Origin: Escherichia typing phage 1
Reading direction: 5' to 3' (one strand)
Sequence record: KP869100
DNA: 64,000 bases
In this document: positions 25,524 to 45,328 of the stretch, piece by piece
How positions within the stretch are numbered: position 1 is the stretch's first letter
Layout: the number at the start of each line of letters is the position of its first letter
Position numbers and translations under genes: made by a program
The notes under the pieces: generated by a model
The model's database searches: none
What the model was told of the DNA's origin: nothing
The model's input: only the letters and a program-made list of their open reading frames with translations

Positions 25524-25552
25524 GAGCCTCCTTAATTGGGGGCTTTTTTTAA
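25524..25552 (+). terminator. intrinsic terminator closing the plus-strand block
   Basis: AGCCTCC-ttaatt-GGGGGCT hairpin followed by TTTTTTT. Confidence 0.6.
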
Positions 25553-25560
25553 TTTTTATA

Positions 25561-27100
25561 AAAATTTTATCGGTTGTTCCAACCTCTGGGTCACCATCAT
25601 ATGTGAATAAAATATCTATCCTTCTTAACAACCTTCTTAATCTTACTCTCTATATATAGTTATATAGTACTATATAGTGTCTTAGTAACTATCTAGTGGT
25701 CTTAATAGCCCCTCTGTATAACCCTTCTAAATAGCCCTCTAAACACTCTTCTAACAAGCCTTCTTAACAACCTATACAATCACCTTAACCATCTCTCTAT
25801 ACGCTCTTAGAAGCCTCTATACACCCCTTAATCTCTATGTCAGCTATGATACTCTCTATAGGTGTTCACTAGGCACTACTAAGCCTCTATATAGACTGTT
25901 TTAACAAACTTAACAGGAATATCTTTACAGACCTTATCTCACAAGGTCTAACACGGTACTAACAAGGTATCTTATAAGCCTGTTTCTACCTGTATTTTTA
26001 AAAGACTGTATAAGTAATTATTCAGAATTTTAAAATTTTTATAAAATAAGACTGTCAAGTCATTTTTTAGGGTCTTTGAAGGAACTCAAAAATATCTGTA
26101 GAAGATGTATATCTGCTTGGTAGCCCTTAACAGCTCCCTTACAAGTACTTTGCAAAATTTTAAAATATCCTTAACAACATCTTAACAACTCTCTCAAGCT
26201 CTTAACATCTCTTCAAAGGTCTTAACAGTTTCTTAACAGAACTAACAAGAACTTAACAGTTTTCTAACAAGCTTTGGTAGGGCTTTACAGAATCTTAACA
26301 GATAACTAACAAGAGCTAACAAGTTAATTTTAAAGAGTTATTTTGTTAAGATAATTAACAAGTTCCTAACAAGTGTTTAATCTTTTTAACAAGCTATTAA
26401 CATGGTCACTATCTCTTTTCTTATCGTTCCCTTTCTCTCTTAGTGATTCTCTAAACATACCTTTTAAAAGCTCTCTATAGCTCCTTGTAAGCTCTTTTAA
26501 GCCTCTTCCTAGTATCTACCCCTCAACTGTATGGATAGCTCTTTATAGGGCTTTACAGGAGCTTTTAAGGCTATGTCAAAGGTTCTTACAAGGCTTTTAC
26601 GTGGTCTTAACAGAGATTTAACAAGGGGCTAACAAGTTGCTAACAAGTGCCTTAAAAGCATAACTATGTAGGGATTGTTAAGAAATTGTTAAGGGGGCTA
26701 GCATTTACGTAACTTTTAAGCTACTTCAAAGTAACTTTATAGCCCCTATAACATACTTTTAAGACACTAACAAGCCCTTTTTAGTAGTTCACAAGATAGC
26801 TAACGAGATGATAAAGCTCACACCCTTATAAGATTCTTTTAAGGCTCTAGAAAGCTCTATAAAGGGCTTTTTAGAGTGGGTTAATATGATTGCTTAAGTT
26901 AGGTTGATAAGGCTGTTATAGGGCTTTATAGAGCGTTTAAATGGTTGCCCTTCCCTTTCGGGTTATGGGCTTATATTTAAGTTGATTTGATAAGGGGTTA
27001 TAGAGTAAGCTATAGAGTTATTGCTTTTAAGGTACGGGATAGATTCTAGGAAGGAAAGGAAAGGGATTGTATAGAGTCTCTTTATAGACGTAAAAAAGCC
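25561..27100. repeat. 1.5-kb ORF-free, G-depleted region packed with short direct repeats
   Basis: no ORF of 60 aa or more on either strand; repeated words CTTAACA, CTAACAAG, CTCTATA, CTTTATAGGGC and CTTTTAAG; flanked by convergent operon ends. Confidence 0.6.
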
Positions 27101-33179: not shown

Positions 33180-33228
33180 TTTCGATTCTCCAGTTTAGGA
33201 AGTGGGCTTGCTTGCCCGTCTGATGCAA

Positions 33229-33257
33229 ATAGTACGTAAACTTGTTTGGCGTGTCAA
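33229..33257 (-). promoter_or_regulatory. strong sigma70-like promoter driving the early array
   Basis: minus strand reads TTGACA, 17-nt spacer (cgccaaacaagtttacg), TACTAT, about 50 nt upstream of the first ATG. Confidence 0.6.
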
Positions 33258-33436
33258 CGGTTTTTATTAAATATTTTTTGTAAGGTTGGGAAATGAACGG
33301 GCGCGCACGACTACCACAAAACAGAACACAAATCAAGAATTATTTTTCAACCCGCTACAAATTTTTCTCTTGACTTTTGGGGAGAGGTGGAGTAAGAGGG
33401 GGAGAGGGGTTGGTCTGGCTCTCTATAAAAACCTAC

Positions 33437-33613
33437 CTGCACGATTCTAAAATGATTTTTCTTGCCCGACCTGAGCGGGGTCTGCACGTTTTGAAAATGA
33501 AAAAGCTCTTTGGAGATTACCTGCACAGTTTGAAAATGAATTTTCTCTTTGGAGTTCAAAATTCTCTCTACAGATTTCTCTACAGAACTCTACCTGCACA
33601 ATCCTGAAATGAA
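33437..33613. repeat. four direct repeats CCTGCAC-N-TTYTGAAAATGA in a non-coding spacer
   Basis: copies near 33437, 33482, 33530 and 33594, spaced 44-64 bp, plus duplicated CTCTACAGA. Confidence 0.55.
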
Positions 33614-33685
33614 AAAGCCCTCCTTACCTGAAAAATTTACCAGATAAAGAAGGCTTAGTCTATTGTGAATATTATACAGAGTTTC

Positions 33686-36325: not shown

Positions 36326-36805
36326 TTAACCGAGGACTTTAGCAAGGATATTTGCAGCCATCGAAGAAGCTTTTGCAGCAGCAACTACGCCAGCTTTGAC
36401 AGTGCTATCCTTAATAGCAGATACCGTTGCAGCATCAGTAAAGAGATAAGTGATTGTTTTGGAACCACTTGTAAAGGAAAGCATAAGAGTAGTTTCCAGA
36501 TTGAAAGAGCGATACGGAGCACCTTCTTTAACGATACCTTCAGCACCTAACTCTGAAGCCTTACCCATATCATAGATAGTCATCAGGTTTTCTTTGTGTG
36601 CAGTCGTTGAACCAACACCTTTTACGTGCTTCTTAACGTTCAACAATGCACGATATTCACGAATGCTACCATCAGCTTTTACATTAACAGCACGGAAAAT
36701 TTTACCTTCAAAGTTACCTTGAATCATTTTACGAACTACTTCAGATTTGTTTGCCGTATCGTCCAGTGCTACCGTAATAATATTGTTCATAAGTTCTTCT
36801 CTCAA
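36326..36805 (-). CDS. hypothetical protein
   Basis: 159-aa ORF. Confidence 0.45.
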   Translation of the reverse strand: MREELMNNIITVALDDTANKSEVVRKMIQGNFEGKIFRAVNVKADGSIREYRALLNVKKHVKGVGSTTAHKENLMTIYDMGKASELGAEGIVKEGAPYRSFNLETTLMLSFTSGSKTITYLFTDAATVSAIKDSTVKAGVVAAAKASSMAANILAKVLG

Positions 36806-37497
36806 TGTTTAACTAACATAGTTTTAATGTGTGGAAGGATTCTGTTTACCTTCTGAACATTATTCTCTGTATCTTCTATAAAGCATACTATATTAAAGTA
36901 AGGAAGAATGCAAGACTGAATCATCCTCACTTTCAAACTTTCTGCACTTATAGAGTTAGTTCCAAAACCACGCATAAAAAGCAAGTAATCATGCTCTATA
37001 TTGTGCCTTAAAAACATCTCAGTAGGTATTCTCTGAGATTCACCTCTTGCTGTCAAGAGTCCAACTGCTGCATGATTTGCAATTGCATCAATAATGTTGA
37101 AAACATATGTTGGCTTTGCTCTTACAGAATCAAGAAGATTAGTGTACTGTGAGAATGAACCATCAGTCAATTCCGTTGAGCAATCTTCGTGATTAAAATT
37201 TGTAAGAACACCATCAATATCTGCTAAGATGAGGTTACCTTTTTCTACAAGGTCTTTATTGACTATGACTAAACTATCGCGCCTTACACCTATAGTTTGT
37301 CCAGTCTCTTTGTCCACAACGTTCACAATTGGTTCTGATGTGTGGAACTCTTCCAGTGAACATACAACTTCTCTTGCAGTGTCTTCAAAATCCCTACACT
37401 GTTCTGGAGTCCATACACAGGAATCAAGACCTAACTCATGAGGATGTAAGTCATAAGCGTGGCACAGGACTTCATCAGACTTTTTTAATTTTTTCAT
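36802..37497 (-). CDS. HAD-superfamily phosphatase-like protein
   Basis: ILADIDGVLTNF matches the HAD motif I (DxDG) in the C-terminal half. Confidence 0.4.
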   Translation of the reverse strand: MKKLKKSDEVLCHAYDLHPHELGLDSCVWTPEQCRDFEDTAREVVCSLEEFHTSEPIVNVVDKETGQTIGVRRDSLVIVNKDLVEKGNLILADIDGVLTNFNHEDCSTELTDGSFSQYTNLLDSVRAKPTYVFNIIDAIANHAAVGLLTARGESQRIPTEMFLRHNIEHDYLLFMRGFGTNSISAESLKVRMIQSCILPYFNIVCFIEDTENNVQKVNRILPHIKTMLVKH

Positions 37498-38023
37498 GGT
37501 TTACCTTAGAAATGTTTGTTGCAAATTCACATTGAGCAATAACTTTCATGTTGTTATAGACATCTTGAGAATATTTCTTAGCTTTAGGGATTCTGTACGA
37601 ATACCCAGCATTATATGATGCTAAAACTTTTTGTAAAGTCTTCTTTGACTTTGGGTGACCATGCACCTTCGTCCAAAACTCAAGCTCTTTATGTGTTTCT
37701 TTTGCGGCATAGTCAAAATCTTTTAAGAGTTTCTTTTTAGCAACATTAGGACTAATTTTGTTACGCTTTACAACAGTCTTCAAGTGATTCTGGAAGATAC
37801 CATAGTCATGGGTCTTTTTATTTTCTACCTTCAGACCTAACTCTGACTCTTGTAAGGCTATAGCTGCTAGAGTGATACCCCAACCTTTACCCATGTTATT
37901 CTCACCATACTGGTAAGCTTTTAACATGTTCACTTTTTGGCTAATTGATAGTTCTGGGCAGTCAACTGCATAAGATAAGTGTGCTGTAAACATTAAGCAC
38001 AAACCTAGAATCAATTTCTTCAT
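37475..38023 (-). CDS. secreted lytic transglycosylase-like protein
   Basis: N-terminal signal peptide (MKKLILGLCLMFTAHLSYA); ESELG...DYGIFQ...SYNAGYS resemble SLT-domain motifs. Confidence 0.5.
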   Translation of the reverse strand: MKKLILGLCLMFTAHLSYAVDCPELSISQKVNMLKAYQYGENNMGKGWGITLAAIALQESELGLKVENKKTHDYGIFQNHLKTVVKRNKISPNVAKKKLLKDFDYAAKETHKELEFWTKVHGHPKSKKTLQKVLASYNAGYSYRIPKAKKYSQDVYNNMKVIAQCEFATNISKVNHEKIKKV

Positions 38024-38079
38024 TGGTTCTCCTGTTTAGTTTATCGTGACATCAATTATACAGCACTCTGCACAAAATA

Positions 38080-38107
38080 CAAATAAAAAAGGCCGCCGAA
38101 GCAGCCT
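38080..38107 (-). terminator. intrinsic terminator
   Basis: minus strand GGCTGC-TTCG-GCGGCC hairpin followed by TTTTTTATTT. Confidence 0.55.
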
Positions 38108-38123
38108 TTTAAGAAATTACTTA

Positions 38124-39233
38124 TTAGATTTCACGTTTACGTTGAGAGATGAGTTCACCAGCAGTGCCAACGATGACATGCAAAGCTTCAGTCTTACCGT
38201 CCCATGCTTCCAGCACTTTACGTTGATTATCAACGATTGCTGCAACTTCATAACGAGAGGAACGCATCTTCATATCATTGTAATCAGTTGGAACAGATAC
38301 AACATCTCGTGGATGTACGCGAACCTTCAGGATTGTATCACCTGAGAAGCAACGAACATAATCCCAAGCACCAACATGAAGACCTTGAGAGCAAGTTACG
38401 TTACGGTTATTATCAACCATCCAACGTGGCATTTCTACAATGTTACCCAAATCATTAGGCACTTTGTAGGTGTGAGAGTCAACCAGCTTGCCTTCACGAG
38501 TAGAGACTTTCTTCCAACCAATGATGTAGCCTTCTTCATCAATTTCAACATCAAGGTGAGATACAAATCCCCAAAGTTGTTCTACAGAATCTTTAGATGG
38601 GTTTTCCATCAGTTTTTCGAAGAACATTACAAGTCGTTCAAAACCTTTATCGCCAGTTTTCATCATGTGAAGAATACGGTCAACCAGAGTAGAACGCATC
38701 TCAACAGCACCGTAGAATAGCTTGTCGCCTTTGATTGTGATAGCACCCTGAGTGAAGTTTTCGATAGACTTACGAATGTTCATCAGTTCAAATGCTTTCT
38801 TGAACTGACCTTTCACAACATGAACTACAATCTCTTGATAGTTCGGATGAGTAGACTCAACAATTTCAGATTCTGAACCATAAGTCATAATTACAGAATC
38901 ACCAGTAATCATGTACTCAATCTTGTCATCTTTCTGCATAGCTTCGTGCAGTTTATTTACTGGAGCTTTCTGTACAGTGTCTTTAACGACCTTTTCAACT
39001 GGTTTGCCAGCTTTCTTTTTAAAAGTCTTAGCAAATTGTTTCAAAGTCTTCGTAGCTGGTGTAGAAGTTGCCTTCTTCTTGCCTTTTAAGGTTGCTTCAT
39101 GACGCTCTACAGCACGACCAACTGAACGGGTTGAAGTATTGAACTTCTGTGCAATAGCTGTTTTAGTCAGCTTACCTTCTTTAACCAGTTTGTAAATTTC
39201 TGCGTCAATCTGTGCTTTAGTTTTAGTAGTCAT
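38124..39233 (-). CDS. rIIB-like protein (candidate)
   Basis: 369-aa ORF directly downstream of the GHKL-ATPase rIIA-like gene; N-terminal helix-turn-helix-like segment. Confidence 0.4.
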   Translation of the reverse strand: MTTKTKAQIDAEIYKLVKEGKLTKTAIAQKFNTSTRSVGRAVERHEATLKGKKKATSTPATKTLKQFAKTFKKKAGKPVEKVVKDTVQKAPVNKLHEAMQKDDKIEYMITGDSVIMTYGSESEIVESTHPNYQEIVVHVVKGQFKKAFELMNIRKSIENFTQGAITIKGDKLFYGAVEMRSTLVDRILHMMKTGDKGFERLVMFFEKLMENPSKDSVEQLWGFVSHLDVEIDEEGYIIGWKKVSTREGKLVDSHTYKVPNDLGNIVEMPRWMVDNNRNVTCSQGLHVGAWDYVRCFSGDTILKVRVHPRDVVSVPTDYNDMKMRSSRYEVAAIVDNQRKVLEAWDGKTEALHVIVGTAGELISQRKREI

Positions 39234-39312
39234 CTTATTACTCTCTCTTGTTAGTTAATCAATCAATTTGTGAGGCTATTCTAAGGGGCTTCAAAGCCCC
39301 TTGTCAAACACT

Positions 39313-41679
39313 TTAATCGTAAATTGTTGTACCTTCTGGAACACATTTCACATTAAAGCCTAAAAACTTACTCACTTCGATAGGTGATACTTTATTCCAA
39401 TCTAAGTGTGAAAGCAAGAAGTTTTCTTGTTTTCTTTTTGAAAGATAGTTTGTCAGCTTGATAACCATGCGGTCACCTGCTTTTTTAATCTTTTTGTACA
39501 GTTTTGTGTCATTATCAAGGCATGACTTCAAATCCTGAAGAACACTGATAGTGTAAGTGTATGCAAACGGTGCAGCCACATACTGAATCTTACCGAACAT
39601 TGCCTCAACAGCATCTTCATTCCCTTCTAAGAAGATTGTCTTAATAGTATCCCTTGAATAACAATACCCGCGAGAAATCTTCCTGTTATTGAACGTAAAG
39701 TTTCTGGCAATAATCCAACTGCTTGTAAGGTCGAGGACACCATCCATGTAGATGCGTGTCATATACCTGTTATGGTTAATCCAATGAACATCAGTTAAGC
39801 TGTCGTTCAAGAGCTTCTCATCTACTTCAATCCAGTCTTCTGGTATCTTTTTCCAATTTGCTTTTCGGAAAACATAGACTGTCTTGCCTGTAACATTAGC
39901 AACTGACTTAGCTACATCCTCTGGAGATGAGCAAAAACATCTACCATCAACTGTGTCACCTACTGCCTTAATATAAAGCTGAGGCTCTTCAATTGTGTCT
40001 AAGTCTTCTGACACCTCTTTGTATGAAGCTTTAGTTTCTGCTGGAACAGCTTTCCAGAGTTTTACAACACCCCTTACAGCTTCTTTACGCTGATAGTGGT
40101 GTTCCTTATCAGACATCTTCACAATCTTTAACAAGCTTTTATCAAGTTTGTGTAGATTGATTAAATCATCTAACTCTTTTTCAGTCGAGAATACAAAGAC
40201 AATACCATTGTATCTGTGAAACAGATTTGACTCACTGGCGTAGTCTCGACATGCACCACGCAAAATTTGATTGCGTCCTACAGTCTTCTCAGTACCGTTT
40301 TTATTGCGACGGTCATTAATCACGAACAAAAACTGTTCAATTTGGCTTTTACGCATTGCACCAAAGATATTGAACATGCTTGCCTCTTGAGTGTAGGAAA
40401 GTGCTGTTGCACGAATCTTACTCTCTAAAGAGTTGAACTTGACATAAGCAACTGGGTCATAAAGATAATCTACTTTAGGGATATTGTTCCCGTTCCTATC
40501 AACCTTAATATTGCCTTTACCGTCACGTTCATAAATGACTGAGCCGTCTTCTGCGTAGATAATTCCACGACGAATGTTTAACAATTCTTCTTCCAGAGAA
40601 TCAAGCTTAATGCCTCCCCACTCTAGCTTTGGACACACAGCATTAAACATCTCTCGTGAGTTCAAACGTAGCTCTGCATAAGCCTGTGCAGCATCCATGA
40701 GTGTAGGTTGGCTATTAACTTTCTTGATAACATCCTTTGTAATTGCTTCAGTTATCTTTTTGGTAGCCTCGATGATAACATTTTTTGTCGTATCATTCAT
40801 CTGCAATGCTTCACGAGAAGCTGCTATAGCAACTGAACCAATAGGCATGTAGATGTTTACAAGGTCTACGCTCCTACGGAAAAACTCTGGCAAGACTTTG
40901 AAGAAATCATCACCAAGTAATGCTTCCATGTTCACTGGATAGGCAATATTACCCATCACCACATTAAACTCTGTCCTGTTACCACTAGAACGCCAGCTTT
41001 GCTTATGAATCATGGCATCATAAACACCTTCTTCACGGGCAATGACGTTCATATCTGCTAATACATCGTCGTACTCAATATTACTTTCTGGTTTTACAGT
41101 GAAGTATGAGTACACATTTCCAGCTTCTTCAAAGAACTTTGAGATACGGTGGTCAGCAACTGCCACACGTACAGCTAAACCATTAGGTTCTTTTGTTGGG
41201 TTAGTGGTCAGCTTAGTTACTTGAGGGATACCATTCTCAAGATAAACAGAGTACTTATTAACAACACCATCAACATAGCTAGATACTGTGAATGACTGAG
41301 CAATTGCAAATGGGGATTTTGAGCCGATACCCATTGCACCAATGTAGTCATTAGAGTCATTCTTCGTAGAAGCCCCGTAGTTTAGGTACAAACTCATAAC
41401 TTTATCATGAGTCAATCCAGTTCCAAAATCACGAACTTCAAAGTAAGGCTCAAAACGAGTAGGTAAATGCACATGGAACGGAATGTTCTCTTTTCCAGCT
41501 TCTTTCTGAGCATCTACTGCGTTACATGACAGTTCACGAATCACTGCCCTTTCTTTAAAGGTATATACACCAGAACTCAAAAGGCTGAACATCTCAGGTG
41601 TCATTGTAATCTGTGCTTGAGACGTCTCTAAAGAAGTTGAACTCTTAATCACTTCTGCGTGGTCATTTACCATGCGCAT
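39313..41679 (-). CDS. rIIA-like protein with N-terminal GHKL-type ATPase domain
   Basis: Bergerat-fold motifs ELSCNAVDA, DFGTGL and GAMGIGSKS in the N-terminal region; 788 aa. Confidence 0.5.
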   Translation of the reverse strand: MRMVNDHAEVIKSSTSLETSQAQITMTPEMFSLLSSGVYTFKERAVIRELSCNAVDAQKEAGKENIPFHVHLPTRFEPYFEVRDFGTGLTHDKVMSLYLNYGASTKNDSNDYIGAMGIGSKSPFAIAQSFTVSSYVDGVVNKYSVYLENGIPQVTKLTTNPTKEPNGLAVRVAVADHRISKFFEEAGNVYSYFTVKPESNIEYDDVLADMNVIAREEGVYDAMIHKQSWRSSGNRTEFNVVMGNIAYPVNMEALLGDDFFKVLPEFFRRSVDLVNIYMPIGSVAIAASREALQMNDTTKNVIIEATKKITEAITKDVIKKVNSQPTLMDAAQAYAELRLNSREMFNAVCPKLEWGGIKLDSLEEELLNIRRGIIYAEDGSVIYERDGKGNIKVDRNGNNIPKVDYLYDPVAYVKFNSLESKIRATALSYTQEASMFNIFGAMRKSQIEQFLFVINDRRNKNGTEKTVGRNQILRGACRDYASESNLFHRYNGIVFVFSTEKELDDLINLHKLDKSLLKIVKMSDKEHHYQRKEAVRGVVKLWKAVPAETKASYKEVSEDLDTIEEPQLYIKAVGDTVDGRCFCSSPEDVAKSVANVTGKTVYVFRKANWKKIPEDWIEVDEKLLNDSLTDVHWINHNRYMTRIYMDGVLDLTSSWIIARNFTFNNRKISRGYCYSRDTIKTIFLEGNEDAVEAMFGKIQYVAAPFAYTYTISVLQDLKSCLDNDTKLYKKIKKAGDRMVIKLTNYLSKRKQENFLLSHLDWNKVSPIEVSKFLGFNVKCVPEGTTIYD

Positions 41680-41708
41680 AATACTTTCCTCTTAGTTTAC
41701 TGTTAAAT

Positions 41709-41883
41709 TACTTATTAAACATTTTACCAGAACCACCACACATAGGGCAACAACCTGCTCTTGTATACCCTTCTCCGTTACAGTAGTCACACTTCTTGTG
41801 TTCTGCAAAGTACTTACAAAGAAGATAAACAAGGACTGCTACACTACCAAGTGACAGTAAAATTTCTACCCAATATGCTTGCA
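41709..41883 (-). CDS. small membrane-anchored protein with two CxxCxGxG (DnaJ-type zinc finger) motifs
   Basis: 58-aa ORF below the track threshold, translated by eye: hydrophobic N-terminus then CDYCNGEG and CPMCGGSG. Confidence 0.35.
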
Positions 41884-42213
41884 TGACTCACCCCTCATGT
41901 TTTTGTAAAGGATAAAGCTTCTGTCATGGACGATACTTGTAGATACTGCAAAGTTACTTTCAAGCATCTGTTTGTTTGGATTGTAGAAGCTTTTTTTAAA
42001 CTCGTCAAGTGCAAATTGGTGATGGTCTGGAAGACCTTTTACACAAACTTTTATTGTGATTGCTGCTGCAATCTTGCCAGTCAGTTCTTCTTTAGCTGCT
42101 ACTAAAATTTTGTTAAGGAACTTTTTACCATCTTCAGGTTTCTTAATGTTCTCCCAACGTTCTTCTAAGATAATGTTGATGTTCATCTCTTTGATTTTCA
42201 TAGTTTTCACCAA
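41866..42213 (-). CDS. hypothetical protein
   Basis: 115-aa ORF. Confidence 0.45.
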   Translation of the reverse strand: MVKTMKIKEMNINIILEERWENIKKPEDGKKFLNKILVAAKEELTGKIAAAITIKVCVKGLPDHHQFALDEFKKSFYNPNKQMLESNFAVSTSIVHDRSFILYKNMRGESCKHIG

Positions 42214-42551
42214 GTCCAGTTAATGAGTATGCCATCGAAACCTTTTGCTAAAGGTACACCCTCATGTTCATAAAATTCAGGATTAACTTCGAATCCACGA
42301 TTTTCAATATACTCTATCATGTATTTCATTACAAAGCTAATCTCTTCGTAGTCATCTGGGTCTCTGCCAAAGAACTGTTCTATGACAAACATACCTTCTT
42401 TTGTAGCAAATTGGCAGTGGTGATTGTAGATACCTTCACAAAACTTTTCAAACTTTTCTTTACCGAGAACTTTAAGGATGTCTGTATAGGCAACTTGTAA
42501 GTATTTCGGTTGTACAGGTTTATTGTTAAACCATATGGAAAGGTTGTCCAT
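42207..42551 (-). CDS. hypothetical protein
   Basis: 114-aa ORF. Confidence 0.45.
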   Translation of the reverse strand: MDNLSIWFNNKPVQPKYLQVAYTDILKVLGKEKFEKFCEGIYNHHCQFATKEGMFVIEQFFGRDPDDYEEISFVMKYMIEYIENRGFEVNPEFYEHEGVPLAKGFDGILINWTW

Positions 42552-42565
42552 AGCATTCTCCAGAA

Positions 42566-42590
42566 ATTAAAAAGGCTCCCGTAGGAGCCT
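42566..42590 (-). terminator. intrinsic terminator after the NAMPT-like gene
   Basis: minus strand GGCTCC-TACG-GGAGCC hairpin followed by TTTTTAA. Confidence 0.6.
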
Positions 42591-42604
42591 CTTATCATAT
42601 ACTT

Positions 42605-44386
42605 TTAAAGCTGCTTGTCAATATTATTTCGAATATCACCAAGAGTTGTGTAACCGTACTGCTCAGAGTCGCTAAAGACTAAACGTAAAGCACAAGCTGG
42701 ATGTTCAAGTGCATCTGCAAAGCTCTGGAATCCATAGCCATCTACAGCTTTCAAATTCTCACCATCCCACATAGGTGCTACACCACCAAAGGCAGATTTC
42801 TTAACACCACTATCTGTTTTAGGGTCTTTTGCAAGCATAATCTCTTTGCCACCAATGCTTGCAAGAGTTGCTTTGACAGCAAATGCAAAGGTGTCACGAG
42901 TCATGTACTGGTAAGTGTAAGAGCCTACACCAAACACCACGTTAGAGCTTGCAAACCCCATTTCATACAGACGCTTCAGGATTTCGTTTGCACGTTCCAA
43001 CGTGATAGAGTCGCCATAGATAAGTCCAATGTGCTCATCCAGTACCTTAAAACCTTTAGAGTTGATAGTTCCTCCAAAGATGTTATACAAGGTCTTAATA
43101 GCTCCATCAATCTCTGCTACAGGGCGTGTTACAACGTTTGCAGAACCAACCATATAAGCGTTCTTCAACATCACTGTATCAGCAACTTCAAAGTCTTCTC
43201 TGTCAACAACCATTTCGTAGCCTTCTGACAGTAGCCATCCAGCAATACCATAGTTGATGTTTTCAAGCTTCATGTTAAGAACAGCATTCAACATTGTGTC
43301 ACTGACTTCCAGCTTGCTTAGGTGCTCGTAATAAGCCTTCTTAGCACATTCTAAGTGGATTGCTTTATAACCTGTGACAATATGTACAGGGTCTCCAGAG
43401 TCAGGGCGAATTACCAGTTTGCCATCACGTTCCATAATTTCTTTACGAAGTGCTGGTAAGATTTCTGACACAGTTCTCCAGAAGTTATAAGTATCTGAAA
43501 CAATACTTGCAATACCTGTTGGGTAAGTTTCTGTTAAGAAACGACGGAAGGTTTGTAACTCACCTTTAAAGCGTCTTTCTTCTTCAATCAACTCATTACC
43601 ACCTTCCCAAGCAATGTTTGCACACATTACAGAGTGCTCAGTGGCTGGTACAGAGCTACCAATATCAGAGATTGGGTAGGACTGTCCATAGATTCGTTTA
43701 GCCGTGTATACAGCAGGGAAGCTATCAGTCCCTTTAAAGCTGGTTAAGTGACCTACAGCGTTAAATGCGTCATCAGTAAAGCCGGACATACCACGCATAG
43801 CAAAATCATGGCACTGATAAGGTAAATGTAAGTCATTGTCACAAGTAAGGTCAGCCCACTTCTTACAGATGCGTTTGTAATGCAATGCAATAGTTGCAAT
43901 GGTGCAAGCCTTCCAAATTTCAGCAGAGAAAGCATCTTCCAGATAACCTGCTACCCAATGAAAACCTGAAACAGTGTTCTGAAAGACAATCATCGGGACA
44001 CGCATTGGAACAACTGTGCCTTCTTCTACAGCGTATACTTCAACTGGTAGATAACCTAAGTCGTGAAGTGCTTCCCAATGCTCTCGACCGATAGCATCTT
44101 TACCCAGAACACCATTCATGACTTCTAAGATTTCATCAATGGCTTCTTTTTTATCACGTTCAAAGAAAGTGGCATTCCAGTGGTCTATCAAGTAATCTTT
44201 AACAAAACGTTGAATACCAAAAGCCACTACACCGTCAATTGCTAAAGGGCTGTTAAACCATTTATCACTACGTGGTGTCAGGTTGAACATCAAGTATTCT
44301 GTTGCACTAGGATACTGGTAAACATGACCAGATTTGTAAGCATCTGCATTTAAACCTGCTGGTACTGCATAAAGTGATTTAGTCAT
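42605..44386 (-). CDS. nicotinamide phosphoribosyltransferase (NAMPT) family protein; Namat-like candidate
   Basis: 593-aa ORF, N-terminus LNADAYKSGH typical of NAMPT/NadV-family enzymes; immediately downstream of a PRPP-synthetase-like gene. Confidence 0.6.
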   Translation of the reverse strand: MTKSLYAVPAGLNADAYKSGHVYQYPSATEYLMFNLTPRSDKWFNSPLAIDGVVAFGIQRFVKDYLIDHWNATFFERDKKEAIDEILEVMNGVLGKDAIGREHWEALHDLGYLPVEVYAVEEGTVVPMRVPMIVFQNTVSGFHWVAGYLEDAFSAEIWKACTIATIALHYKRICKKWADLTCDNDLHLPYQCHDFAMRGMSGFTDDAFNAVGHLTSFKGTDSFPAVYTAKRIYGQSYPISDIGSSVPATEHSVMCANIAWEGGNELIEEERRFKGELQTFRRFLTETYPTGIASIVSDTYNFWRTVSEILPALRKEIMERDGKLVIRPDSGDPVHIVTGYKAIHLECAKKAYYEHLSKLEVSDTMLNAVLNMKLENINYGIAGWLLSEGYEMVVDREDFEVADTVMLKNAYMVGSANVVTRPVAEIDGAIKTLYNIFGGTINSKGFKVLDEHIGLIYGDSITLERANEILKRLYEMGFASSNVVFGVGSYTYQYMTRDTFAFAVKATLASIGGKEIMLAKDPKTDSGVKKSAFGGVAPMWDGENLKAVDGYGFQSFADALEHPACALRLVFSDSEQYGYTTLGDIRNNIDKQL

Positions 44387-44431
44387 CTTTTAATCTCTCT
44401 CAAAATGGGGCTTTTAAGCCCCTATAAAGTT

Positions 44432-45328
44432 TCAATCAAGGTTTGCTACAGTAACTTGACCATAATGTGTTAAGCCACGGTCTTTAGCTTCCCCTAAAGA
44501 GTTTGTAGTGTAGATATGGTCAATACCATTGTCAAGAAGGTTTTCAACATCTTTAGAGAAGATACCATGTGTTACATAGAGTTCCACACGTTTTGTACCT
44601 GCTTCACGGAGATGCTTAGCTGCTTCTATGAAGGTTCGACCACCATCACAGATATCATCCAGAATCATGACGGTTTTATCTGTCAAATCAACATCATCAA
44701 GGATTCGCATACCAGTAATTTCACCAGTCTTAAGGTTACGCACCTTAGACATTGTGATATATGGTTTATCCACCTCTTTAGCGGTCTCTGCAACCTTCTT
44801 AGCAGCACCTGCATCTGGGGCTACTAAGTAATCAACCAGTGGGTCATTTGCATAGTGGACTGCAATCTCCTTTTGAGGAATACTCTGGAAGCAGTTAAAC
44901 AGGTTATCTGGTACATAGCTGTGAGGGTCAACTGCACAGACTGCGCCAAATCCCATTGCATTAATCTGTTTAGCAAAAACCTTTAAAGCTGCTGCGTCAC
45001 CTTTAAACATGTGACGGTCATATCGTGCATTTGGTAAGTAGTAAAAGATGACAGTCTTTAAAGCATAATCATGAGGAATTAAATCATCAATTGCTTCTTT
45101 AGCAAGTGCCACAGCAAACAATGTGTCCTTGTCATAACCTTTTACAATCATAATCACATTGTTGATGGATGATGCTGCATAAGCAGTAAAATCAACAAAC
45201 TCTGGCGAAAAGTGTCCACCAATCTCACCAGAAGGGAATTGGACGATGTTAAACTCTTCTTCATGAGTCCCTTTAGTTGGTGAATGAACTGTAACACGGA
45301 TAGATGTTTTCATAGTTTTCTCTCTCAA
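44432..45328 (-). CDS. ribose-phosphate pyrophosphokinase (PRPP synthetase) family protein; Adps-like candidate
   Basis: VMILDDICDGGRT phosphoribosyl-binding motif and DPHS segment of Prs-family enzymes; 298 aa. Confidence 0.6.
   Translation of the reverse strand: MREKTMKTSIRVTVHSPTKGTHEEEFNIVQFPSGEIGGHFSPEFVDFTAYAASSINNVIMIVKGYDKDTLFAVALAKEAIDDLIPHDYALKTVIFYYLPNARYDRHMFKGDAAALKVFAKQINAMGFGAVCAVDPHSYVPDNLFNCFQSIPQKEIAVHYANDPLVDYLVAPDAGAAKKVAETAKEVDKPYITMSKVRNLKTGEITGMRILDDVDLTDKTVMILDDICDGGRTFIEAAKHLREAGTKRVELYVTHGIFSKDVENLLDNGIDHIYTTNSLGEAKDRGLTHYGQVTVANLD

Follow-up and report, generated by a model that had tools for sequence, protein, structure and literature searches.

Four conserved direct repeats beside the early region of Felix O1-like phages: candidate protein-binding sites and a tentative origin of replication

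What is the role of four direct repeats that stand, in a fixed orientation, in a non-coding spacer between two transcription units of a Felix O1-like phage? This question arises from a 64,000-nt stretch of Escherichia typing phage 1 (KP869100), which was analysed in full and is referred to here as the window. Sequence identity to E. coli O157 typing phage 15, a Felixounavirus, is 99.7%, and approximately 250 related phage records match the region. All genes around the repeats lie on the minus strand. Along the direction of transcription, an operon of NAD-salvage genes, rIIA, rIIB, polynucleotide kinase and a 261-aa macro-domain protein is followed by the spacer and then by an array of small genes with a sigma-70-type promoter; small genes with strong sigma-70 promoters occupy 27.4–33.2 kb. 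The repeats therefore mark the border between the conserved rIIA-rIIB-kinase-macro operon and the variable small-gene array, and their immediate neighbours in the window are the macro gene and a 68-aa protein without a Pfam match. A first-pass annotation, made from the letters alone, had correctly recognized the spacer as non-coding; its size is, however, 506 bp (33180–33685, from the macro-gene stop to the next ATG, both on the minus strand) and not 480 bp. That annotation had overlooked the minus-strand location of the genes and of the early promoter, a promoter-like element on the plus strand, and the presence of the terminal repeat elsewhere.

The NAD-salvage genes of the operon that ends at the array (window 36802–45328) are those for nicotinamide phosphoribosyltransferase and PRPP synthetase. 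Together with rIIA, rIIB, the kinase and the macro-domain protein, they form a set that suggests counter-defence against NAD-depleting or ADP-ribosylating systems. Our literature search returned no description of the repeats, no origin and no transcriptome for the Felix O1-like group. The annotations of wV8 and Felix O1 list other direct repeats, not these four, and the Felix O1-like genome paper describes no origin and gives the temporal control of transcription as unknown (PMC3185647).

A search of the plus strand for CTGCAC-N7-AAATGA returned four exact matches (33437–33455, 33482–33500, 33521–33539 and 33594–33612), all within 176 bp, which bears out the earlier count of four direct repeats. 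Their start-to-start distances are 45, 39 and 73 bp and replace the 44–64 bp given previously. The 20-nt motif reported at that time does repeat, but its invariant part is bipartite, consisting of TGCAC, seven variable bases and AAATGA, and the extended unit spans approximately 28 nt (TACC-TGCAC-RWWTYKR-AAATGA-AWWWKC). The four units and the adjoining gene are as follows.

33434..33461, plus strand: repeat copy 1, TACC-TGCAC-GATTCTA-AAATGA-TTTTTC, with a T-type tail; 36.5 bits; kept in all lineages
33479..33506, plus strand: repeat copy 2, GGTC-TGCAC-GTTTTGA-AAATGA-AAAAGC, with an A-type tail, then CTCTTTGGAG; 35.7 bits
33518..33545, plus strand: repeat copy 3, TACC-TGCAC-AGTTTGA-AAATGA-ATTTTC, then CTCTTTGGAG; 40.3 bits
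33591..33618, plus strand: repeat copy 4, TACC-TGCAC-AATCCTG-AAATGA-AAAAGC; 35.5 bits
33686-34471, minus strand: macro-domain gene (261 aa), the last gene of the rII-macro operon

When one mismatch was allowed, a single further match appeared in the 64-kb window, at 38068; shuffled sequence gave a mean of 0.49 matches per window, and none of 100 shuffles reached five. A position-weight matrix was built from 30 distinct units of several lineages and scanned against the window and the remaining 28 kb of the closest genome (KP869113). Across this genome of approximately 92 kb, the four copies scored 35–40 bits and the next best site 16.9. The four exact copies together with this gap in score establish that the array is genuine, greatly exceeds chance expectation and has no second occurrence in the genome. 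The tail of copy 4 is the complement of the T-tract in the macro-operon terminator, and all four units are homologous to the 3' part of that terminator over approximately 35 nt.

Conservation in related phages had been named in the first-pass annotation as a check on its reading, and the array is indeed kept across genera. It is present in Felixounavirus, Mooglevirus, Suspvirus and Erwinia Kolesnikvirus phages and in a distant unclassified relative, and it keeps its orientation and its place directly after the macro-domain gene. In Mooglevirus and Suspvirus, the macro protein is 64–69% identical and the repeats are spaced by 45/41/75 bp; in the Erwinia phages, the motif reads ATGCAC-N7-AAATGA and the spacings are 39/37/37 bp. 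The distant relative is an unclassified 88-kb IMG/VR phage whose syntenic proteins are 40–60% identical and whose macro protein is short (148 aa). Four spacing sets thus occur among the lineages (45/39/73, 45/41/75, 39/37/37 and 38/148/36 bp). Si3-type phages join a divergent macro allele within the array and lack copy 3, as in two records of this type (L051 and L084) with three copies only. The array is therefore a constant island between mosaic modules.

Homology with many relatives breaks at recurrent points, namely at window 33500, in the array between copies 2 and 3 (the Si3-type phages), and at 33215–33292, just inside the early promoter region. These recurrent breaks indicate that the spacer is bounded by recombination junctions between mosaic modules. 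A separate irregularity was seen in one IMG/VR contig (L020, from 3508 onward), which is chimeric and continues after copy 2 (...CAGGTCGGG) into GC-rich, bacterial-looking sequence.

The pattern of substitution within the array is highly uneven. In a comparison of the window with Mooglevirus/Suspvirus, the core bases (4 x 11) agree at 44 of 44 positions, as against 50–54% identity in the N7 gaps and 64–68% in the remaining spacer. Among 26 distinct sequences, substitutions occur in 3 of the 44 core columns, as against variation in 24 of the 28 columns of the gaps and in 106 of the 138 elsewhere; the N7 gap never varies in length. In all, 11–18 nt per unit are conserved. The sites of the array are under strong purifying selection, non-coding and fixed in orientation. 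Two half-sites that do not vary, kept at a constant distance across a gap whose own sequence is free to change, are the classical footprint of a bipartite protein recognition site. In a metagenome-wide scan, the array was found in these phages only; the other matches were eukaryote-like satellites.

Because several IMG/VR contigs end in the repeat spacer, the array was considered as a terminal repeat or packaging site. This candidate was rejected. The 608-bp direct terminal repeat (DTR) of the Felix O1-like phage UAB_Phi87 was determined experimentally (PMC4837284, Fig. S1). It maps to window 26117–26693 with 83.5% identity, approximately 6.7–7.3 kb from the array. The DTR homologue is housed in a 1.6-kb non-coding region (25550–27100) that is packed with short CTTAACA / TGTTAAG repeats and lies in the zone of converging plus- and minus-strand genes; this region probably contains the physical genome ends. 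Two contigs of a distant Ounavirinae-like phage (positions 1–1100 of L113 and of the reverse complement of L114; 88,375 and 84,893 bp) start at most 4 nt apart, adjoin TGTTAA repeats resembling those of the Felix-type DTR, and have their TGCAC-N7-AAATGA array approximately 0.75 kb from this start; the array of this lineage may be situated near the genome end.

The surroundings of the array contain several further elements.

33229..33257, minus strand: sigma-70-type promoter P(-) for the small genes, TTGACA-17-TACTAT, AT-rich on its upstream side; hexamers conserved, spacer variable
33370..33398, plus strand: candidate antisense promoter P(+), TTGACT-17-TAAGAG, directed into the repeats
33615..33656, minus strand: intrinsic terminator of the rII-macro operon, from a terminator scan
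33379-33409, plus strand: purine tract GGGGAGAGGTGGAGTAAGAGGGGGAGAGGGG, a 27/31 mirror repeat containing the -10-like TAAGAG
33333..33350, plus strand: invariant block TCAAGAATTATTTTTCAA, upstream of P(+), 100% conserved

The early promoter of the first-pass annotation is sigma-70-like, reads on the minus strand (33257..33229) and lies downstream of the repeats along transcription, at a distance of approximately 180–360 bp. The plus-strand element P(+) differs in quality between lineages. Its TTGACT (33370–33375) and a TA at 17-bp spacing are invariant across Felixounavirus, Mooglevirus and Suspvirus, and its -10 reads TAATAG in some relatives. A promoter scan of the window did not call P(+), because the -10 there (TAAGAG) lacks the critical final T. 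Where unrelated sequence replaces the purine tract, the -10 becomes TGG-TAGCCT, a better extended -10 element. The corresponding element of the Erwinia phages, TTGAC(G/C)-18-TATACT with a spacer that varies, likewise faces the repeats and diverges from the early promoter on the minus strand. It is a strong form of P(+); that of the window is weak. At the other end of the array, the right arm and T-tract of the terminator are invariant, while the left arm and loop differ in Mooglevirus with the GCCCTCC/GGAGGGC stem kept. On the plus strand, the hairpin is poor in T-tract, and it may also end plus-strand transcripts. In most lineages, the array would thus probably lie inside a short plus-strand (antisense) transcript running toward the hairpin of the shared terminator. 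Near the array of L093, the distant relative, neither P(+) nor the terminator was detected.

The purine tract noted earlier is real, with its coordinates shifted by one base from the 33380–33410 given for it. It is replaced by a C-rich plus-strand tract in six relatives (L021, L022, L193, L196, L211 and L213), which makes it a lineage-specific accessory and no constant part of the element. In several lineages, a purine/pyrimidine tract adjoins the array on either strand, and this strand switching favours a DNA-structural accessory role, or none, over a role in RNA. The reverse complement of the invariant block TCAAGAATTATTTTTCAA is partly like the TTGAAAATGAATTTTC half of the repeat unit (inverted-repeat pair I1, 73% complementary). 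An 89,066-bp IMG/VR contig is broken inside the purine tract, ending at 33389 (L037) and restarting at 33382 (L050), with Nextera adapter fused to both ends and no duplicated end; a second contig (L018) also ends at 33389, followed by adapter. For the break at 33382–33389, sequence lost in library preparation or assembly at the purine/pyrimidine mirror repeat is the probable explanation; a site-specific interruption in virion DNA is a less probable one.

On the basis of the conserved bipartite core, we consider it reasonably likely that the four repeats are protein-binding DNA sites. The earlier reading, an origin or a cluster of regulator sites, is supported in part: the comparative data favour a functional cis element that is conserved in the manner of protein recognition sites. 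At their distance from the early promoter, the repeats cannot be classical operators of it. By-eye comparison with the consensus sequences of IHF, Fis, CRP, ArgR, LexA, Fur, OmpR and nut boxA revealed none that fitted all copies. Among functions required once per genome, an origin, packaging, DNA entry and a single RNA gene were considered. Packaging is excluded by position, given that the DTR lies elsewhere, and the absence of the motif from other promoters excludes a global temporal regulator. T7-type replisomes start at promoter-linked origins. The replisome genes of this phage are T7-like (a primase-helicase fusion and an exonuclease), and the phage has no RNA polymerase of its own (PMC3185647). 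The combination of a T7-type replisome, an array present once per genome and an adjoining diverging promoter-like pair places a transcription-assisted, iteron-like origin first among the readings. We infer that a protein binds at the repeats and that the bound array would act in replication rather than in local transcription control; that the array is specifically an origin of replication is a tentative assignment, held with appreciably less confidence than protein binding itself.

According to this model, a sequence-specific DNA-binding protein, probably phage-encoded, would recognize the TGCAC and AAATGA half-sites exactly 7 bp apart, and four bound sites would form a nucleoprotein site that occurs once per genome at the boundary of operon and small-gene array. 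The bound array would mark the origin for the T7-type replisome of the phage, and transcription entering from the conserved antisense P(+) could help to open or prime the origin DNA.

The features expected of such an origin are present in part. Four copies of an 18–28-nt unit on one strand agree with iterons in number. Classical iterons, however, are spaced by approximately 22 bp, and the iteron-like spacing claimed for this array was not found; the distances are 36–45, 73–77 or 148 bp without helical phasing. No initiator-like gene is linked to the array among its neighbours (rIIA/B, kinase, macro and unknowns). The macro gene is the only conserved neighbour, and the downstream gene differs between lineages; a downstream gene was considered as the candidate binder and discarded, as none is conserved across them. 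No clear AT-rich unwinding element abuts the array, and the only pure AT stretch (approximately 33262–33285) lies approximately 150 bp away, where it also serves as upstream element of P(-). At the array, GC skew does not switch; it follows the gene strand and is therefore uninformative on an origin. The incomplete -10 of P(+) in the window and the failure to detect P(+) and a terminator in L093 also count against an origin, and since the array probably lies within a plus-strand transcript in most lineages, it may act at the RNA level. With respect to the DnaA-box consensus TTWTNCACA, the window units (ACCTGCACR) match at 6 of 9 positions, with TT missing, and the Erwinia units (CTATGCACA) at 8 of 9, so that neither makes a consensus DnaA box.

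An alternative that we regard as unlikely, although it deserves attention, is that the array, bound by a phage or host protein, acts locally as a transcription-control element or insulator; it would stop transcription of the rII-macro operon from reading through, or obstruct or modulate P(+), and so keep the two units separate in time. The array is placed exactly between the terminator and the diverging promoter pair and lies 35–200 bp downstream of P(+), a position suited to a roadblock. The invariant block, partly inverted-repeat-like, stands on the other side of P(+) and would permit looping, and the conservation pattern fits protein sites in this case as well. However, a general promoter or operator motif was rejected by the matrix scan, since the motif is missing from all other promoters of the genome, including the repeated early ones, and this rules out a general temporal switch. 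The distance of 180–360 bp between the repeats and P(-), and the failure to detect promoter and terminator near the array in L093, also weigh against local control.

A similarly low probability is given to the possibility that the repeats act as RNA, as four protein-binding modules of a plus-strand antisense RNA of approximately 250 nt that extends from P(+) to the shared terminator. Such an RNA could titrate a protein as a sponge or decoy, a ToxN-like endoribonuclease of the host being one candidate because AAAU is present in each module. A more specific proposal is somewhat more doubtful still: in it, the four conserved 18-nt modules, with AAAUGA in each, would sequester or engage a defence protein of the host that binds or cleaves RNA, for instance a type III toxin of the ToxN kind. 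Several features are compatible with these ideas. A plus-strand promoter-like element is directed into the array in three lineages, with conserved hexamers and a variable spacer in the Erwinia phages, and a hairpin stands at the far end of the array. The unit period of 37–39 nt in the Erwinia phages is like that of type III antitoxins, and ToxIN is common on E. coli and Salmonella plasmids.

Other observations argue against an RNA role. The units are neither near-identical nor constant in length (45, 39 and 73 bp), with just 11–18 conserved positions each, and P(+) is weak in the window and undetected in L093. The array had no Rfam match at E<=1, ToxI families included. RNAalifold on nine diverse plus-strand sequences returned −9.5 kcal/mol with 0 of 31 pairs compensatory, and no conserved structure was found. 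No ORF for a ToxN, CptN or TenpN toxin stands beside the array. Homology to ToxI was considered and rejected, as the units of six enterobacterial ToxIN plasmids (e.g. AGGTGATTTGCTACCTTTAAGTGCAGCTAGAAATTC; AGGTGAT...GCTACC...TAAGTGC) are unlike the phage unit; the ToxI units compared were those of E. coli, Enterobacter and Pectobacterium.

Host counterparts were sought by an exact scan for two adjacent motifs in 185,579 GTDB species genomes. The 28 loci returned all lie outside Enterobacterales, and the majority are coding repeats of 21-nt period. Two loci in Lachnospiraceae MAGs are compact, true ToxIN systems (L056, reverse complement, approximately 770–1420; L061, approximately 500–1150), ordered as promoter, two 37-nt repeats containing TGCAC-N7-AAATGA, terminator and a ToxN_toxin ORF (Pfam E=2.7e-47). 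This match lends some support to the RNA reading, but it is post hoc, and by ToxI homology the motif in that RNA lies off the cleavage site. In 72,556 plasmids and in 5,426 genomes of E. coli, BLAST gave chance-level matches only, one prophage match being inspected, and the Enterobacterales species representatives contained no similar array. Mimicry of a host repeat array was consequently dropped, with no host counterpart in either the species-genome scan or the plasmid and E. coli searches.

It is much less probable that the array is a signal for DNA entry or another DNA transaction, on the pattern of the first-step-transfer stop region of T5. The array lies approximately 6.7–7.3 kb, or approximately 8% of the genome, from the terminal repeat (DTR homologue at 26117–26693) and adjoins, on the inner side, the small-gene array with its strong promoters (27.4–33.2 kb). 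Nevertheless, the distance is not conserved, since the array of the distant relative stands approximately 0.75 kb away from what appears to be the end of the contig or genome, and two-step injection is not known for the Felix O1-like group.

The least credible explanation is that the repeats are neutral leftovers of a tandem duplication of the terminator tail, or part of a small protein-coding gene: the homology of the units to the terminator and the shared frame of copies 1–3 in the window (45 and 39 bp) speak for it, but the invariant core amid neighbouring bases only approximately 50–66% identical rules out neutrality, and spacings of 37, 41, 73, 75 and 77 bp break the frame in relatives, including Mooglevirus (41 and 75 bp) and the Erwinia phages (37 bp). 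Some records annotate CDSs over the repeats (wV8 gp13, L002 1768–1932, minus strand; Mordin gp014, L003 1722–1910, plus strand), and these two lie on opposite strands. Because the frames are unconserved among relatives, CDS calls across the repeats are probably spurious, and public annotation is corrected in this respect.

Felix O1-like phages are widely used in Salmonella and E. coli typing, biocontrol and therapy. Of the non-coding elements found around their early region, the array is under the strongest constraint. It occurs once per genome, which makes its 11-base core a well-defined target, whether for mutagenesis, for pull-down or for the mapping of an origin. It is therefore a sharp and cheap handle on where replication starts and how early and later transcription are separated. 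If it is an origin, it defines one for a whole subfamily with a T7-type replisome and no RNA polymerase of its own. If it is instead an RNA decoy or a host-factor binding site, it would be a new anti-defence or takeover element; a decoy would be one kept across the whole phage subfamily without sequence likeness to the known ToxI family.

Comparison with known systems places these readings in context. The T5 injection-stop region is a large, repeat-rich non-coding region, situated at approximately 8% of the genome, that borders the first-expressed genes; the present array resembles it in lying approximately 8% of the genome from the terminal repeat and in bordering the small-gene array, but unlike it does not keep its position relative to the genome end in relatives. 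ToxI arrays and the pseudo-ToxI of Pectobacterium phage PhiTE share with the present array direct repeats of approximately 37–45-nt period, an AAAU in each unit and a location between promoter and terminator, and PhiTE pseudo-ToxI is a precedent for phage-borne mimics. The present units differ from these in being unequal and in lacking a toxin gene, an Rfam match and similarity to enterobacterial ToxI. The p4 sites of phi29 are inverted repeats that overlap the promoters they control, between divergent early and late promoters. Both cases comprise four A-tract-containing, here putative, protein sites between opposed promoters of a lytic phage, but the sites described here are asymmetric, direct and 35–360 bp from the promoters, with no sequence or protein homology.

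The closest parallels to the preferred origin reading come from replication systems. Plasmid iterons, bound by Rep proteins (RepE, pi and RepA), are likewise asymmetric sites of approximately 19 bp that are directly repeated, with two contact regions approximately one helical turn apart; here, by contrast, there is no rep gene, no consensus DnaA box in the window and no regular 22-bp register. In lambda ori, four O-protein sites are present, and in T4 oriE, direct repeats beside a promoter require RepEB. The irregular spacing of 36–77 bp departs from the approximately 20–24 bp of these two origins, and neither a linked initiator gene nor a clear adjacent AT-rich unwinding element was found. 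The resemblance lies in four direct repeats with strongly conserved cores, in one orientation at one locus, and in the adjoining promoter-like element directed into them. Direct protein-binding repeats beside promoters are thus a familiar kind of element; the motif itself and its subfamily-wide conservation are new.
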